A DNA stretch of 38,235 nt from a virus (lineage: Duplodnaviria; Heunggongvirae; Uroviricota; Caudoviricetes). Each line of letters begins with the position of its first letter. The stretch's first letter is position 1. The notes below the pieces were generated by a model. The model had not been told where the DNA came from. It did no database searches and saw nothing but the letters and a program-made list of their open reading frames with translations. The stretch is taken from IMG/VR virus record IMGVR_UViG_2563366949_000011; one strand, 5' to 3'. A program made the position numbers and the translations under genes. Shown piece after piece: positions 4,163 to 33,957 of the stretch.

Positions 4163-4394
4163 GTTGGTTTTTCTCCACGGATTTACCGACAACCGAAGCC
4201 CTGACTGTTCCAGCAGTTGGGGCTTCACTGTTTTGATTTCTTTGCCGCATCAAGCATCACTTCTGAAAACGTGCGCTTGCCACTGAATACTCTTTCTCTT
4301 CTCAATTTTTCGTTCGTGCCAAATGATTCGCCATGAACAAAATTTGGTCTTAAAATGGTAATCGCAATCTCTTTGACTACTGCATCCAAGCGAA

Positions 4395-28041: not shown

Positions 28042-28113
28042 ACTTCCCTCTCCCCCAAATAAAAAGGCCTGCGATTACCAGCAGGCCTGTTACAAGCTCA
28101 GTGATGTAGATGG

Positions 28114-30436: not shown

Positions 30437-30709
30437 CTACCTGCCTTGACGAAAGACCTTAAGAACATCGTTAAACTGACTTACGGATATGTCTTCTTTG
30501 AGAAGCTTTTCCAGAAATGCGTTTGGAATGAACGTATATCCCTCCTCTTTTGGGAGAGACGGGAGCAACGCCCTCGCCTCAGCTTTCAGAAGCTCAGTTC
30601 TGGCAACTTTCACAAAAGAGATTTGAGTTCTTTCATCAATGGAACGAAGGAAGCGCAAACGCTTAGCTTCTTTGTGTGTATCAGGTGGATTAAAGCCTTT
30701 GTTTCGCAT
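30437..30709 (-). CDS. Hypothetical protein between cII and the replication initiator gene
   Basis: 90 aa from ATG 30709 (MRNKGFNPPDTHKEAKRLRFLRSIDER...). The longer ORF-track version overlaps cII out of frame and is not credible. Confidence 0.45.
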   Translation of the reverse strand: MRNKGFNPPDTHKEAKRLRFLRSIDERTQISFVKVARTELLKAEARALLPSLPKEEGYTFIPNAFLEKLLKEDISVSQFNDVLKVFRQGR

Positions 30710-30731
30710 ATAATTACCTCGCTGGATGTTG

Positions 30732-31025
30732 TTAAAATTCCATTTGTATTTGATCAGAACGCTCGGTTGCCGCCGGGCGTTTTTTATTGGTGAGAATCGA
30801 AGCAACTTGTCGTGCCAATCGAGCCATGTCGTCGTCGACAACACCCCATTCAAGAACAGCAAGCAGCATTGAGAACTTTGGAATCCAGTCCCTCTTCCAC
30901 CTGCTGATCTGCGACTTATCAACGCCCACAGCTTCCGCTGTCTTCTCAGTTCCAAGCATTGCGATTTTGTTAAGCAACGCACTCTCGATTCTTAGAGCCT
31001 CGTTGCGTTTGTTTGCACGAACCAT
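30732..31025 (-). CDS. cII: CII transcriptional activator (lambda type)
   Basis: 97 aa from ATG 31025: MVRANKRNEALRIESALLNKIAMLGTEKTAEAVGVDKSQISRWKRDWIPKF..., essentially as I recall lambda CII. The ORF-track 5' extension runs over nutR and is rejected. Confidence 0.85.
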   Translation of the reverse strand: MVRANKRNEALRIESALLNKIAMLGTEKTAEAVGVDKSQISRWKRDWIPKFSMLLAVLEWGVVDDDMARLARQVASILTNKKRPAATERSDQIQMEF

Positions 31026-31082
31026 ATGTAAGTATTTCCTTAACAAATAAGAAGTTATGCGCATCAACTTATGCGCGTTGTA

Positions 31083-31128
31083 TTCCCGCATTTCGGCGGG
31101 AATGAGGACCATGACTGTTAAAGAGCAA
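31083..31128 (-). promoter_or_regulatory. nutR-like site: boxA plus boxB hairpin
   Basis: Minus-strand sense reads TGCTCTTTAACA (boxA-like; lambda boxA is CGCTCTTACACA) followed by the hairpin TTCCCGCCGAAATGCGGGAA; the same boxA/boxB pair recurs in the leftward operon. Confidence 0.6.
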
Positions 31129-31133
31129 TTTGC

Positions 31134-31319
31134 TTATGCCGCTTTGCGGTAAGCGCTTTCTTGATACTTCAGGGCGCCAGCTGTAACGACTTCCAGTCGA
31201 TAGGCGTCTTTCTCTGGGATGACTTCCTTCCACTGAGAGACTGCTGCGTCGCTAATGCCTAACGCTTTAGCTACAGCACGCTGGGTTCCGAAGTGGTCGA
31301 TAACATCTTTCTTGTACAT
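31134..31319 (-). CDS. cro: Cro-like repressor
   Basis: 61 aa with HTH GTQRAVAKALGISDAAVSQW; divergent from c2 across the operator region. Confidence 0.8.
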   Translation of the reverse strand: MYKKDVIDHFGTQRAVAKALGISDAAVSQWKEVIPEKDAYRLEVVTAGALKYQESAYRKAA

Positions 31320-31399
31320 AGACTCGCTCCGAAATTAAAGAACACTTAAATTATCCACTAAAGGAATCTTAAGTCAAGTTTATTTAAGATGTCTTAACT
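31320..31399. promoter_or_regulatory. OR operator region with pR (and presumably pRM)
   Basis: P22-type operator-like sequences ATTAAAGAACACTTAAAT (31334-31351) and ATTTAAGATGTCTTAA (31382-31397). On the minus strand, TTGACT (complement of 31372-31377) and ATAATT (complement of 31349-31354) with 17-bp spacing form a pR-like promoter for cro. Confidence 0.6.
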
Positions 31400-32050
31400 A
31401 TGAAAACTCAATTGATGGGAGAGCGCATTCGCGCTCGGAGAAAAGAACTCAAGATCAGGCAGGCCGCACTTGGAAAGATGGTCGGCGTGTCTAATGTTGC
31501 CATATCTCAGTGGGAACGCTCTGAGACAGAGCCAAATGGAGAGAATCTTCTCGCCCTGGCTAATGCGTTGAAGTGTTCCCCTGACTATCTGATGAAAGGA
31601 GAGGAAAGTCTTTCAAACATTGCCTATCACAGTAGGCATGATCCAAGAGGGTCATACCCTCTGATTAGCTGGGTGAGCGCAGGATGCTGGATGGAAGCTG
31701 TAGAACCATATCATAAGCGTGCAATAGATAACTGGTACGATACAACCGTAGACTGTTCAGAAGATTCGTTTTGGTTGGACGTGAAGGGAGACTCAATGAC
31801 GGCTCCGGCCGGTCTCAGTATCCCTGAAGGAATGATAATACTCGTCGATCCTGAAGTAGAGCCGCGTAACGGGAAACTGGTAGTTGCAAAGCTCGAAGGA
31901 GAAAACGAGGCAACTTTCAAGAAGTTAGTTATTGATGCAGGCAGGAAGTTTCTAAAACCACTTAACCCACAATATCCGATGATCGAGATCAACGGAAACT
32001 GCAAAATCATCGGCGTAGTTGTCGATGCAAAACTAGCAAACCTTCCATAA
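31400..32050 (+). CDS. c2: C2-type prophage repressor (P22 C2 / lambda CI family, LexA-like autocleaving)
   Basis: 216 aa; near-identical over most of its length to my recollection of P22 C2 (MNTQLMGERIRARRKKLKIRQAALGKMVGVSNVAISQWERSETEPNGENL...). Confidence 0.9.
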   Translation: MKTQLMGERIRARRKELKIRQAALGKMVGVSNVAISQWERSETEPNGENLLALANALKCSPDYLMKGEESLSNIAYHSRHDPRGSYPLISWVSAGCWMEAVEPYHKRAIDNWYDTTVDCSEDSFWLDVKGDSMTAPAGLSIPEGMIILVDPEVEPRNGKLVVAKLEGENEATFKKLVIDAGRKFLKPLNPQYPMIEINGNCKIIGVVVDAKLANLP

Positions 32051-32074
32051 GGGGGCATTCGCCCCTTTTTTTTA
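32051..32074 (+). terminator. Rho-independent terminator immediately after c2
   Basis: GGGGGC-ATTC-GCCCC hairpin (32051-32065) followed by a 9-T run. Confidence 0.7.
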
Positions 32075-32141
32075 TTTCCTTTAAAAATCAAAGCCAAACT
32101 TAAGTTACGAAAGAAAATTTAAGTTTTCTTCAAAAATACTC

Positions 32142-32170
32142 TTGACCATTAATTAAAGAGATCTTAAATT
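32142..32170 (+). promoter_or_regulatory. pL-like promoter embedded in OL operator repeats
   Basis: TTGACC (32142-32147) and TAAATT (32165-32170) with 17-bp spacing; surrounded by TTAAG-containing operator-like half-sites between 32095 and 32180. Confidence 0.45.
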
Positions 32171-32216
32171 TAAGCCATCAGCAGGACGCTGGTAGCCAAA
32201 CGGAACAGATTGGCAG

Positions 32217-32258
32217 GCTCTTTAACATTGATGGGATTGTCCCGCCGAAATGCGGGAA
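32217..32258 (+). promoter_or_regulatory. nutL-like site: boxA plus boxB hairpin
   Basis: GCTCTTTAACA followed by TCCCGCCGAAATGCGGGAA, the same boxA/boxB pair as nutR in transcript sense. Confidence 0.6.
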
Positions 32259-32658
32259 CCAAAGAGTAGTTGGCTTTGGGATTGGATGAATGAGCAGGCT
32301 GATGCTCGACCAATGTATAAACAGCGCTCATGGCAAGCAGTAACCAATCTGCGCCTCAAGACAGCGTCACTGGTAGTGCGGGCGCTCTAACCAGTAAGCC
32401 GGAGTTCAGCACCGGCCATCCAATCGCCAAAGTCAATTCCATAGGCGTTATGCAGCCGCCACCATATTCAAGAAAGCTGCACAAGAGGTAGGAGGATTTA
32501 TGTGAATACTTACATTCAGTTGAGAGATTAATTAAATAGAACTGATCGAGCAGAGTCCATGAAGGATCATAAATGCTCTTCCATCCCCGTCTAATTGGCG
32601 GGGATGGAAACCACTTTGTAATAAAAAAAATTCCAAAGTTGTTTCATCGGAGGTCAAC

Positions 32659-32958
32659 ATGACAGTAGTCATTACATATCTGGCTGACGATAACGCCAGA
32701 AATCGCCGCAGAGCACGCAGACAGGCTCAACGTGAACAGGCAATGCAAGAACAGCGACTGGCGCGAAAGATTGCGCTAAAGCTCTCTGGTTGCGTCAGAG
32801 CAGACAAAGCAGCATCACTCGGAAGCCTTCGCTGCAAGAAGGCAGAAGAAGTCGAGAGTAAACAGAATCGTATTTACTACCGCAAGCCACGCAGTGAAAT
32901 GGGGGTGACTTGTGTTGGTCGCCAGAAAATGAAATTAGGAAGCAAACCACTTATTTGA
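32659..32958 (+). CDS. N-like antitermination protein with arginine-rich motif
   Basis: 99 aa, GGAGG RBS; N-terminal ARM DDNARNRRRARRQAQREQ; first gene downstream of pL/nutL. Confidence 0.6.
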   Translation: MTVVITYLADDNARNRRRARRQAQREQAMQEQRLARKIALKLSGCVRADKAASLGSLRCKKAEEVESKQNRIYYRKPRSEMGVTCVGRQKMKLGSKPLI

Positions 32959-33036
32959 GGTGATATATGGAAGAAGAATTTGAAGAGTTCGAAGAGCATC
33001 CGCAGGATGTGATGGAACAATACCAGGACTATCCTT

Positions 33037-33237
33037 ATGACTACGACTATTGATAAGAATCAATGGTGTGGACAATTCAAGCGATGCAATGGATGCAAGC
33101 TGCAATCGGAATGCATGGTTAAGCCTGAAGAAATGTTTCCTGTAATGGAAGATGGGAAATATGTCGATAAATGGGCAATACGAACGACGGCAATGATTGC
33201 CAGAGAACTTAGTAAACAGAATAACAAGGCTGCCTGA
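33037..33237 (+). CDS. Hypothetical Cys-rich early protein
   Basis: 66 aa (CGQFKRCNGCKLQSEC); no clear RBS; its stop codon lies in the loop of a terminator-like hairpin. Confidence 0.4.
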   Translation: MTTTIDKNQWCGQFKRCNGCKLQSECMVKPEEMFPVMEDGKYVDKWAIRTTAMIARELSKQNNKAA

Positions 33238-33295
33238 TGGTGGCCTTTATTTTTGTCCGTAAATAATTTCATGCTTATTACAATCAAGGTGATAT

Positions 33296-33718
33296 ATGGA
33301 AGAACAAGCAAACAAGATTCTCGTAGAACTTCTGCAAAAAGCCAGTAATGGAATAGACGCGGCTGTTTCATTTAGCCAGGCACAGATTCCTGATGTTGTT
33401 CGTCAGTTGCTAACATGGAGTTTTGTCCATAGCGCACTTTTCCAAGTGGCTGGGTTGTTGCTTTTAATTGCAGCAATGAAACTTCCTAGTTTTGCAAGAA
33501 CGGCAAGAAATAATGGCGAGAGATGGACGTCTTTAGATGGATGTCCAAACGATAGATATTTTATATCTTCGTTTTATTACGATATATGCACTGTATTTGC
33601 TCCTATATTTGGCTCAATTATTGGCGTTTTAATTATTGCCTTCAATTTCGAATGGTTGAAGATTTGGCTTGCACCTAAGTTATTCCTAATTGAATATGCA
33701 GCATCATTGGTTAAGTAA
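33296..33718 (+). CDS. Membrane protein in the early-left operon (position comparable to sieB-type exclusion genes)
   Basis: 140 aa with RBS AGGTGA; hydrophobic helices LFQVAGLLLLIAAM and IFGSIIGVLIIAF. Confidence 0.5.
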   Translation: MEEQANKILVELLQKASNGIDAAVSFSQAQIPDVVRQLLTWSFVHSALFQVAGLLLLIAAMKLPSFARTARNNGERWTSLDGCPNDRYFISSFYYDICTVFAPIFGSIIGVLIIAFNFEWLKIWLAPKLFLIEYAASLVK

Positions 33719-33722
33719 TTTC

Positions 33723-33748
33723 AGGCCGCATAGTCGGCCTTTATTTTT
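33723..33748 (+). terminator. Rho-independent terminator
   Basis: AGGCCG-CATAGT-CGGCCT hairpin followed by TTATTTTT. Confidence 0.55.
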
Positions 33749-33867: not shown

Positions 33868-33891
33868 GCCCTCCAGTGTGAGGGCTTTTTT
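33868..33891 (+). terminator. Rho-independent terminator
   Basis: GCCCTC-CAGTGT-GAGGGC hairpin followed by TTTTTT. Confidence 0.55.
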
Positions 33892-33957
33892 ATATGCATA
33901 CCAATAACGCTTCACTCGAGGCGTTTTCGTTATGCAATCAAACAGAAGGAGCATCCT

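Follow-up and report, generated by a model that had tools for sequence, protein, structure and literature searches.

Do the two identical boxA–boxB elements that lie in the early operons of this 38,235-nucleotide stretch of viral DNA (the window) represent the nut sites of an N-type antitermination system, and what occupies the long interval between the leftward element and the gene that might serve both? The initial annotation of the locus had described the same boxA–boxB unit in the rightward and leftward early transcripts, and this was borne out, as the unit occurs as an exact repeat, twice, on opposite strands. We consider that, with a probability of roughly 0.9, the pair represents nutL and nutR of a P22-like temperate coliphage of the CUS-3/HK620 type, an assignment drawn from comparison at the sequence level. 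Since the boxA–boxB element is common, being present in more than 120 viral contigs and in 500 of 5,426 complete E. coli genomes, nut sites of the HK620 type, which are designated 'putative' in the HK620 record, are rated here as already known. The sole new point is that the long leader preceding N is composed of conserved structured RNA modules.

The boxA 11-mer GCTCTTTAACA is located at 31116–31126 on the minus strand and at 32217–32227 on the plus strand, and these are its only two copies in the window with one mismatch allowed; taken alone this is not significant, with two or more matches in 25 of 100 shuffles. The boxB 19-mer TCCCGCCGAAATGCGGGAA is located at 31083–31101 (minus strand) and 32240–32258 (plus strand), with no others in the window at up to three mismatches, and two copies were obtained in none of 100 shuffles. 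The repeat finder returned the boxB pair as a 100% inverted repeat, 19 of 19 nucleotides being the same at nutL and nutR. At both sites the order in transcript sense is boxA, spacer and hairpin, with a boxA–boxB spacer of 12 nt at nutL and 14 nt at nutR; the hairpin begins 15–16 nt past the 8-nt boxA core, compared with 8 nt in lambda, 11 nt in P22 and 12 nt in phage 21. The elements identified by repeat search, folding and comparison with HK620 are as follows.

32216–32227, plus strand: nutL boxA, G-GCUCUUUAACA, the same as the HK620 feature annotated nutL.
32240–32258, plus strand: nutL boxB hairpin, stem UCCCGC/GCGGGA, loop CGAAAU (repeat search and fold).
31116–31127, minus strand: nutR boxA, UGCUCUUUAACA, 7 nt past the cro stop codon and the same as the HK620 nutR feature.
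31082–31103, minus strand: nutR boxB hairpin, 8-bp stem AUUCCCGC/GCGGGAAU, loop CGAAAU (repeat search and fold).

The boxA core, UGCUCUUUA at nutR and GGCUCUUUA at nutL, matches the consensus in both early operons, the rrn form being UGCUCUUUA and the lambda variant CGCUCUUA (PMC2724277). The boxA had been likened to that of lambda, but it has the consensus form shared by rrn, P22 and phage 21 and not the variant that lambda itself carries. When the RNA was folded, boxB hairpins formed at both sites, with a stem of 6 bp at nutL or 8 bp at nutR and a 6-nt loop, CGAAAU, at both, and the nutL boxB was kept in the minimum-energy and centroid folds of the entire leader. The folding energies are unexceptional for the composition (z = −0.5 and −1.9), and the evidence for boxB comes from repetition, position and the comparative data rather than from stability.

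The elements also occupy the canonical positions that had been claimed for them, nutR between cro and cII and nutL downstream of pL, with gene and promoter coordinates in agreement. nutR is flanked by the stop codon of cro (31134) and the start of cII (31028), and nutL starts about 40 nt past the putative start of the pL transcript, which lies at about 32177 and reads ATCAGCAGGACGC as at lambda pL; the same ATCAGCAGGACGC is present in lambda, P22 and phage 21. The surrounding early operons contain the following features.

32142–32170, plus strand: pL promoter-like site, TTGACC-17 nt-TAAATT, overlapping P22-type operator repeats (promoter scan and repeats).
31350–31377, minus strand: pR promoter-like site, TTGACT-16 nt-GATAAT (promoter scan).
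31134–31319, minus strand: cro, P22 type (P22_Cro, 8.7e-28).
31029–31081, minus strand: segment between nutR and cII, with the hairpin GCGCAU-aaguug-AUGCGC (31059–31076), identical to HK620.
30732–31028, minus strand: cII, lambda type (Phage_CII, 5.2e-48).
28065–28088, minus strand: terminator-like hairpin and U-tract past the replication genes of the pR operon (pattern level).
33226–33247, plus strand: first terminator-like hairpin and U-tract past N and ral in the pL operon (pattern level).
33723–33740, 33868–33885 and 33906–33925, plus strand: further terminator-like sites of the pL operon (pattern level).

In both operons, candidate terminators for N to override lie downstream of the nut site. 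The HK620 record places tR1 on the 7 nt directly past boxB; tR1 is Rho-dependent and is not recognisable from sequence.

A single N-type protein with an arginine-rich motif (ARM) had been suggested to recognise both sites. This agrees with the presence of an N gene downstream of nutL and with the co-variation of boxB and ARM classes in relatives. The gene had been placed about 400 nt past nutL, and its open reading frame begins at 32659, at a distance of exactly 400 nt from boxB.

32659–32958, plus strand: N antiterminator gene, 99 amino acids, with the Shine–Dalgarno sequence GGAGG at 32649–32653 (PHROG 271).

The ARM, DNARNRRRARRQAQREQ, comprises residues 10–26, with eight arginines within residues 14–25. 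Over residues 1–57, a stretch that takes in the entire ARM, the protein is identical to HK620 N; residues 34–99 are almost identical to phage 21 N, with about 70% identity overall. The central and C-terminal parts are of the phage 21/lambda type. The protein matches PHROG 271, 'anti-termination protein N-like', at 1e-36, and its C-terminal 37 residues (63–99) match lambda N in the antitermination-complex structure 6GOV (E = 9e-4). The Pfam N_peptide model scored 18 bits, below its cut-off of 27.9, no NCBIfam model matched N, and the PGAP name is 'hypothetical'; given the identity to phage 21 and HK620 N and the PHROG 271 and 6GOV matches, we read the missed Pfam and NCBIfam thresholds as a shortcoming of the models rather than as counter-evidence.

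Comparison of 176 nutL leaders sharing the pL start and boxA showed that each boxB loop class is paired with its own ARM class.

Loop CGAAAU: ARM NARNRRRA(R/K)R.
Loop GACAA: P22-type ARM.
Loop CUAACC: phage 21-type ARM.
Loop CCCUUGU: ARM SRRYLKRGEL.

Wherever a CGAAAU-class nutL was accompanied by downstream sequence, an ARM of the NARNRRRA(R/K)R type came next (102 of 102). Class frequencies among the 176 leaders are biased by loci that had been collected via boxB itself, and in the unbiased subset of 80 loci the P22 class accounts for 39, phage 21 for 11, CGAAAU for eight, CCCUUGU for six, GAUGAUUCG for four and others for 12. Some variant members of the class keep the CGAAAU loop with a changed stem, as in the nutR CUCCCAC-CGAAAU-GUCGGAG, and across classes nutR has the loop of nutL but often another stem; in this nutR comparison a loop match was accepted with the stem free to differ, and the P22 positive control needed a looser pattern. 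Phage 21 provides a natural module swap, sharing the pL leader, boxA and N residues 34–99 but differing in the boxB loop (CUAACC) and the ARM. The comparison of boxB with those of lambda, P22 and phage 21, which had been proposed as a check, likewise showed loop classes that differ between phages, each with its own ARM class. The classes of boxB and ARM vary in concert, a pattern that, at the level of sequence, points to cognate specificity. In the searchable literature we found no experimental or structural study of the CGAAAU/NARNRRRARR class, and no paper with this boxB sequence or on the HK620 nut sites.

These data are consistent with the following course of events. Each site would be transcribed, the pL transcript carrying nutL some 40 nt from its start and the pR transcript carrying nutR just past cro, and the rrn-consensus-type boxA on the nascent RNA would recruit NusB and NusE. 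The boxB hairpin, with its CGAAAU loop and G+C-rich stem, would be bound by the arginine-rich N-terminus of the 99-residue N, while the C-terminal region of N, which is homologous to that of phage 21 N and lambda N, may hold the complex on RNA polymerase. Polymerase modified in this way would then pass tR1 and, later in each early operon, the intrinsic terminators.

The same sequences might instead be viewed as a DNA-level boundary or linker for recombination of immunity cassettes between lambdoid phages, without RNA function. One nut pair indeed flanks different immunity cassettes, with arm-to-arm distances of about 1.13, 1.67, 2.0 and 2.9 kb, the stretch between nutR and the start of cII matches HK620 at 100% identity despite cro and cII genes of different types on either side, and the CUS-3 record, which has no nut annotation, labels the interval from cI to N 'bsq5; boundary sequence'. 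Such a reading nevertheless leaves unexplained the strict coupling of boxB loop and ARM class, the conservation of the loop amid variation of the stem, and the transcript-sense orientation and consensus boxA at both sites, and we regard a purely DNA-level function as highly improbable. Boundary and RNA roles are compatible, so that a boundary role would be additional to, and not a replacement for, the assignment as nutL and nutR.

The leader between nutL and N is 400 nt long here, compared with 158 nt in lambda, 156 nt in P22, 110 nt in phage 21 and 106 nt in HK620. It had been called unusually long, which is correct in relation to these four phages; it is not unique, however, as leader length ranges from 61 to 617 nt across the family, about half of the 102 CGAAAU-class leaders exceed 106 nt, and five of these leaders have 399–400 nt. 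The leader may be described as an expanded lambdoid N leader, with a helix of about 22 bp, an enlarged 128-nt module A inside it and a 207-nt module B before the N ribosome-binding site. The part up to and including module A contains the following features.

32259–32279, plus strand: small hairpin CCAAAG-(9 nt)-CUUUGG directly past boxB, also present in lambda, P22 and phage 21.
32269–32288, plus strand: 5′ arm of the long-range helix, GUUGGCUUUGG-GAUUGGAUG, at the position of lambda boxC and the lambda N-leader stem.
32289–32416, plus strand: module A, a 128-nt multi-hairpin core within the long-range helix, with 49 consensus pairs, 12 of which show compensatory changes.
32417–32437, plus strand: 3′ arm of the same helix, CAUCCAAUC-G-CCAAAGUCAAU, containing a single bulged purine (repeat finder, fold and covariation).

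The 3′ arm of the small hairpin is the base of the long-range helix, and the two pairings are therefore alternatives. The long-range helix, a larger conserved structure just past nutL, was absent from the initial annotation. It comprises about 22 bp, with 96.2% of cells paired as against 33–43% in slid controls, and compensatory changes are present in eight of 17 pairs, and the observed score was reached by none of 500 shuffles; in this covariation test the 3′ arm was picked as the best-pairing CCAAAG-anchored candidate, which somewhat favours pairing. The base of the helix, GGCUUUGG/CCAAAG, is common to lambda, P22, phage 21 and HK620, and by position and base sequence the helix appears to be the homologue of the lambda N-leader stem. 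That stem is cut by RNase III and modulates the repression by N of its own translation, and by analogy the helix described here may also be cleaved by RNase III. In lambda, translation of N is repressed by N bound at nutL in concert with Nus factors, with a highly structured leader in between (PMC5725501).

The covarying long helix invariably closes module A, which is 90–99% identical in lambdoid phages of E. coli and Klebsiella and in unrelated Jilinvirus-type phages, in the last of which it adjoins a boxA-like GCUCUUUCC. An Rfam scan of 30700–33300 gave no credible match even at E values up to 5, and the only gathering-level Rfam match in the window is sar RNA, at 4163–4229.

Between the long-range helix and the N Shine–Dalgarno sequence lies module B, with the following components.

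32438–32644, plus strand: module B, a 207-nt leader insert, 98% identical in CUS-3 and diverged (70–78%) in HK140-type leaders.
32490–32505, plus strand: strong Shine–Dalgarno sequence and start–stop mini-ORF, AGGAGGAUUU-AUG-UGA, invariant in three of three module B variants.
32577–32609, plus strand: second hairpin, with a 13-bp G+C-rich stem and the loop UAAUU, without a U-tract (repeat finder and fold).
32607–32645, plus strand: invariant 11-bp helix GAAAC-ACUUUG/CAAAGU-GUUUC, ending 3 nt before the N Shine–Dalgarno sequence.

The presence of another large hairpin in the leader had been noted, and an 11-bp perfect inverted repeat was found at 32579–32609, with a folding energy of −25.4 kcal/mol (z = −7.07) for the second hairpin; this hairpin sits in the 207-nt insertion module, which is present in some relatives only. 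Module B was found in 158 E. coli genomes. It was considered as a mobile element found elsewhere and rejected as such, since it was located 14 nt upstream of an N gene in every genome inspected. A 53-residue ORF in the leader (32330–32491) without any Pfam, PHROG or NCBIfam match was also rejected as a gene, because it spans the junction of modules A and B and is missing in both CUS-3 and HK620.

The location of the second hairpin, downstream of nutL and upstream of N, together with its very stable, G+C-rich stem (z = −7), which is preserved through compensatory changes in the HK140-type variant, would suit a terminator or attenuator before N, in which case N synthesis would need N-modified polymerase and would be subject to positive autoregulation. 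This seems improbable, because the stem is followed by the tail AAACCACUUUGUAAU and not by a U-tract, one stem mismatch is present in most copies of the type found in the window, and module B is missing altogether in about half of the phages that share this nutL and N; as an intrinsic terminator the hairpin was rejected for want of a U-tract, and the terminator scan of 30700–33300 left it unflagged. It is quite possible, if somewhat short of an even chance, that module B derives from a small inserted gene (moron) that has since decayed, and is carried as neutral or nearly neutral cargo of the leader. Relatives hold a 39-residue hydrophobic ORF (PHROG 7482) or, in relative L090, an HNH-like ORF at the same position, and module B itself has a strong Shine–Dalgarno sequence and an AUG with an immediate stop codon; most family members, moreover, are without it. 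A remnant would hardly be expected, however, to keep the Shine–Dalgarno–AUG–UGA element, the 11-bp helix and the paired hairpin between variants that are otherwise only 70% identical, to end always exactly 14 nt before the N AUG, or to persist in its 158 E. coli genomes. We tentatively propose, as a reading likewise short of an even chance, that the expanded N leader, modules A and B together, holds undescribed cis-regulatory RNA modules, which, if so, would tune N translation, leader processing or the Rho resistance of this long untranslated leader, going further than the lambda leader is known to do; any function assigned to module B or its hairpin is putative.

As regards significance, the nut-site finding changes little, as sites annotated in HK620 are met again in a phage nearly identical to CUS-3. 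The CGAAAU/NARNRRRARR class is very common in E. coli prophages and distinct from the lambda, P22, phage 21 and H-19B classes, and the pair could serve as an extra orthogonal peptide–RNA pair. An annotation gap is also apparent, N being systematically 'hypothetical' in PGAP and under the Pfam threshold. The N leader is a hotspot of modular insertions, some of which are structured RNAs under selection, and it offers a possible regulatory system and a tractable one for the effects of leader structure on N autoregulation.

Focusing on the named phages, lambda has the same architecture, and in both the ARM core RRRxRR is followed by QAQ. The boxB loop described here contains GAAA, the lambda loops being GAAGA and GAAAA, and the C-terminus of lambda N shows 54% identity over 35 residues to N of the window. 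Lambda differs in its CGCUCUUA variant of boxA, in a boxB with a 5-bp stem and a 5-nt loop, and in a leader whose 88-nt core is unrelated to that of the window. H-19B has a lambdoid N-type antiterminator acting at nutR/tR1 that has been studied experimentally, with an N of 127 residues and the ARM 12-RSRRRER-18 (PMC3526286). The HK620 record notes a similarity to H-19B N, but identity of the present system with H-19B N/nut was rejected, as the ARM and the protein length differ (PMC3526286).

P22 is of the same genome type (Lederbergvirus, with P22-type C2 and Cro and with sar RNA present) and has the same boxA consensus and the same leader frame, GGUUUGG-ACUGGCG…CGCCAGU-A-CCAAAGCC. Its boxB loop is GACAA and its ARM is GNAKTRRHERRRKLAIERD, and the nutR and nutL stems differ in P22, whereas they are identical here. 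Phage 21 shares the pL transcript start, boxA, the start of the spacer and the leader frame, and its boxB loop is also of 6 nt; its boxB (UCUCAAC-CUAACC-GUUGAGA) and its ARM, GTAKSRYKARRAELIAERR, differ from those of the window, and phage 21 therefore represents a separate specificity class.

CUS-3 (CP000711) is the closest whole-genome relative, with 98.9% identity over the region and the same N, nut sequences and module B; its leader is 312 nt long, with a short core of the HK620 type replacing module A. HK620 (AF335538) annotates base-identical sites as 'nutL; putative N-utilization leftward' and 'nutR', and its boxA, spacer and boxB are identical base for base at both sites, as is the segment from nutR to the cII start. 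The HK620 leader is without modules A and B, and its N has a P22-like C-terminus (…AIYAAGYRKSKQLTAR), whereas N of the window is of the phage 21/lambda type. Between the nut sites, HK620 carries an immunity cassette with a 434/L-type cI, and the window carries one of the P22 C2 type.

The window represents a temperate phage of P22-like type (Lederbergvirus) whose closest record is coliphage CUS-3, with 98.9% identity over the region. The P22 type is confirmed by a sar RNA, which regulates the P22 immI/ant region as an antisense RNA. The features of the early region and its surroundings are as follows.

4163-4229, + strand: sar RNA (Rfam RF00262, 83.9 bits)
28088-28065, - strand: terminator-like hairpin with U-tract, candidate N target after nutR
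30732-31028, - strand: cII, lambda type
31134-31319, - strand: cro, P22 type
31377-31350, - strand: pR-like promoter
31400-32050, + strand: C2-type repressor
32142-32170, + strand: pL-like promoter
32659-32958, + strand: 99-aa arginine-rich ORF
33037-33237, + strand: ral
33226-33247, 33723-33740, 33868-33885 and 33906-33925, + strand: terminator-like hairpins with U-tract, candidate N targets after nutL

The initial annotation placed the same boxA-boxB unit in both early transcripts, between cro and cII (nutR) and past the pL-like promoter (nutL), and both the duplication and the placement were borne out. The 38-kb window contains exactly two copies of the 11-mer boxA, GCTCTTTAACA (31116-31126, -; 32217-32227, +), and exactly two of the 19-mer boxB, TCCCGCCGAAATGCGGGAA (31083-31101, -; 32240-32258, +); no further boxB copies with three or fewer mismatches were found in it, and the repeat finder returned the two as an inverted repeat that is perfect over 19 nt. 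Two matches to the boxB 19-mer arose in 0/100 shuffles, against 25/100 for the boxA 11-mer, which is not significant alone. The weight of the evidence lies not in the boxA 11-mer but in the 19-mer and in the order common to these two divergent transcripts: boxA, a spacer of 12-14 nt and the hairpin, in transcript sense. On RNA folding both boxB copies form a stem (6 bp in nutL, 8 bp in nutR) with a CGAAAU loop, though their energies (z = -0.5 and -1.9) are ordinary for short G+C-rich hairpins, so that folding alone is no proof. The nutR boxA begins 7 nt past the cro stop codon, and a match at 32177 (ATCAGCAGGACGC) to the pL transcript start region of lambda, P22 and phage 21 places the nutL boxA about 40 nt into the pL transcript. 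The boxA had been likened to that of lambda; it is of the rrn/P22-type consensus UGCUCUUUA rather than lambda's CGCUCUUA, and the consensus form has been linked with stronger antitermination (PMC2724277).

Judged by their sequences, the nut elements are members of the lambdoid N/nut family. They are identical base for base, spacers included, to the sites entered in the HK620 GenBank record as 'nutL; putative N-utilization leftward' and 'nutR', and are therefore already known; the finding of the sites is an ordinary one. In that record tR1 is the 7 nt immediately 3' of boxB. The segment from the nutR boxA to the cII start codon (31029-31127 in the window, 816-918 in the HK620 locus, L002) is 100% identical, whereas cro is of P22 type in the window and of lambda/HK97 type in HK620, and cII is of lambda type in the window and of P22 C1 type in HK620. 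Since, in addition, the immunity cassettes between the same nut pair range from ~1.1 to 2.9 kb in relatives, the nut regions double as mosaic joints.

Sequence comparison identifies the 99-aa ORF as the N protein: PHROG 271 ('anti-termination protein N-like') matches it at 1e-36, and its last 37 residues match the lambda N of the solved antitermination complex 6GOV (E = 9e-4, 54% identity). HK620 N is matched exactly by residues 1-57, and phage 21 N almost exactly by residues 34-99. The protein is a three-part mosaic; the same arginine-rich motif (ARM) is joined to either of two C-terminus types: the phage 21/lambda type in the window and CUS-3, and the P22 type in HK620 and HK140. There is an annotation gap for this widespread protein, with no match in NCBIfam, a score under the cut-off for Pfam N_peptide and the PGAP name 'hypothetical protein' (loci L129-L131). 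Some genomes instead carry a 129-aa antisense ORF call across the leader, which is probably spurious. Farther along the operon, a 21-nt direct repeat, AGGTGATATATGGAAGAA(G/C)AA (95% identity; 32958-32978 and 33287-33307), supplies the ribosome-binding site and opening codons for a small ORF after N and for a 140-aa ORF after ral (PHROG 3054). Rfam also gave a hit below threshold to STnc230, an enterobacterial sRNA, at 33215-33295 (-; 27 bits, gathering score 50, E = 0.4); it overlaps the terminator-like hairpin that follows ral and is likely to be a chance hit.

The comparative evidence that one ARM would read both boxBs is strong, in agreement with the single N-type antiterminator proposed at the outset. 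Phage 21 has the pL leader, the boxA and N residues 34-99 in common with the window and differs from it exactly in boxB (UCUCAAC-CUAACC-GUUGAGA) and N residues 1-33. Among 176 leaders retrieved by the conserved pL start and boxA only, with boxB left free, every boxB class was paired with its own ARM class.

boxB loops and the ARM classes paired with them in the 176-leader survey
CGAAAU: NARNRRRA(R/K)R
GACAA: P22 type, NAKTRRHERRRK
CUAACC: phage 21 type, TAKSRYKARR
CCCUUGU: SRRYLKRGEL
GAUGAUUCG: fifth ARM class

In the CGAAAU class the same ARM follows nutL at 102/102 sites with downstream sequence. When differing stems are allowed, the nutL and nutR loops are the same in every boxB class, and the full 19-nt identity is peculiar to the CGAAAU class. 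Variants of this class have altered stems but retain the loop and its closing C-G pair (one such is the nutR CUCCCAC-CGAAAU-GUCGGAG), an indication that specificity is set by the loop.

N had been placed about 400 nt 3' of nutL, and the distance from the boxB end to its start codon is indeed 400 nt. The leader was also described as unusually long, which is correct relative to lambda (158 nt), P22 (156 nt), phage 21 (110 nt) and HK620 (106 nt); within its own class it is not unique, the leaders varying in length between 61 and 617 nt (n = 102): 106 nt in 48, about 310-313 nt in 17, 330 nt in six, 357 nt in five and 399-400 nt in five. Folding shows strong structure over the leader as a whole (z = -5.4), and its alignment resolves a conserved frame, module A and module B. 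Immediately 3' of boxB lies CCAAAG-(9 nt)-CUUUGG, the 3' half of which extends into the 5' arm of a long-range helix of ~22 bp with one bulged purine (GUUGGCUUUGG-GAUUGGAUG, 32269-32288, with CAUCCAAUC-G-CCAAAGUCAAU, 32417-32437). The helix base is common to the window, lambda (GGCUUUGG-GGUGUGUG…CACACACC-A-CCAAAGC), P22, phage 21 and HK620, and the inner 9 bp are lineage-specific yet complementary. Over 17 distinct arm pairs, the paired fraction of cells is 96.2%, compared with 33-43% with the partner slid; compensatory changes occur in 8/17 pairs, and 0/500 shuffles equalled the observed score. The test is somewhat biased toward pairing, since the CCAAAG-anchored candidate that paired best was taken for the 3' arm. 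The 5' arm overlaps the position of lambda's boxC, and by homology the helix may be cleaved by RNase III in this phage. Its lambda counterpart belongs to an N leader described as 'highly structured', by way of which nutL-bound N represses its own translation (PMC5725501). In the minimum-energy fold, the nutL spacer UGAUGGGAU (32228-32237) and part of boxA pair with ~32640-32655, which covers the N Shine-Dalgarno and the bases immediately 5' of it (…UUUCAUCGGAGG); neither segment varies much within the family, being nearly invariant, and the pairing is weak, as it is missing from the centroid structure.

Module A (32289-32416) is a 128-nt core within the long-range helix, standing in for the 41-nt core of HK620 and CUS-3. 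It occurs in ~48 viral contigs (IMG/VR, L212-L250), always enclosed by the long helix, at 90-99% identity in settings that include lambdoid N leaders, a Klebsiella phage pL leader and Jilinvirus-type phages, where it sits 3' of a boxA-like GCUCUUUCC; it spans 1995-2140 and 2000-2160 in loci L005 and L006, respectively. Its consensus fold is multi-hairpin, with compensatory changes in 12/49 pairs, and Rfam gave no match to it. Module B (32438-32644) is a 207-nt insert between the long-range helix and the N ribosome-binding site that ends 14 nt ahead of the N start codon in every case inspected. It is found at 98% identity in CUS-3, in diverged forms of 78% and 70% identity (HK140 type) and in 158/5,426 complete E. 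coli genomes. Within it, a strong Shine-Dalgarno with a start-stop mini-ORF, AGGAGGAUUU-AUG-UGA (DNA AGGAGGATTT-ATG-TGA; 32490-32505), is invariant in 3/3 variants that are elsewhere only 70-78% identical, and an invariant 11-bp helix (32607-32618 with 32634-32645) ends just 5' of the N Shine-Dalgarno. Another leader insert (L024, L068 and L109) likewise carries a strong Shine-Dalgarno mini-ORF, AGGAGGTGCCGTA-ATG-GTG-CAC-TAA.

The large leader hairpin of the initial annotation was recovered within module B at 32577-32609 (13 bp, -25.4 kcal/mol, z = -7.07). The HK140-type variant retains it with several compensatory changes (-18.5 kcal/mol, z = -4.6), which amounts to one independent lineage comparison, and most window-type copies have one stem mismatch. 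The hairpin is not a canonical intrinsic terminator, since its stem lacks a following U-tract and was not called in the terminator scan. Nor is it required for a working N/nut system, as some half of the phages that share this nutL and N do without it. It may modulate N translation or the stability of the leader, or it may be part of a decayed gene insertion, in keeping with the 39-aa hydrophobic ORF or HNH-like ORF held by relatives at the same place. The nutL-N interval is an insertion hotspot (leaders L012, L054, L060 and L090); the hydrophobic ORF (MLDIMTNPILGG…) belongs to PHROG 7482, and the HNH-like ORF, in one relative, gives the 617-nt leader (L090). The modular structured N leader, made up of the covarying long helix and the two modules, the second with its start-stop and hairpin, is worth following up; that its modules are regulatory RNA elements hitherto undescribed is a tentative reading, and a doubtful one.

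In conclusion, the CGAAAU-class element is present in at least 120 viral contigs and in 500/5,426 complete E. coli genomes, where it is without annotation, and no experimental work on this boxB/ARM class was found in the searchable literature. By eye, its ARM (NARNRRRARRQAQREQ, against lambda AQTRRRERRAEKQAQW) and its loop (GAAA within CGAAAU, against lambda GAAGA/GAAAA) resemble those of lambda more than those of P22 or phage 21, and the loop could plausibly adopt a GNRA-like fold with C·U closure. It forms a specificity class other than those of lambda, P22 and phage 21, and it differs also from H-19B, whose N has 127 aa and the ARM RSRRRER (PMC3526286).
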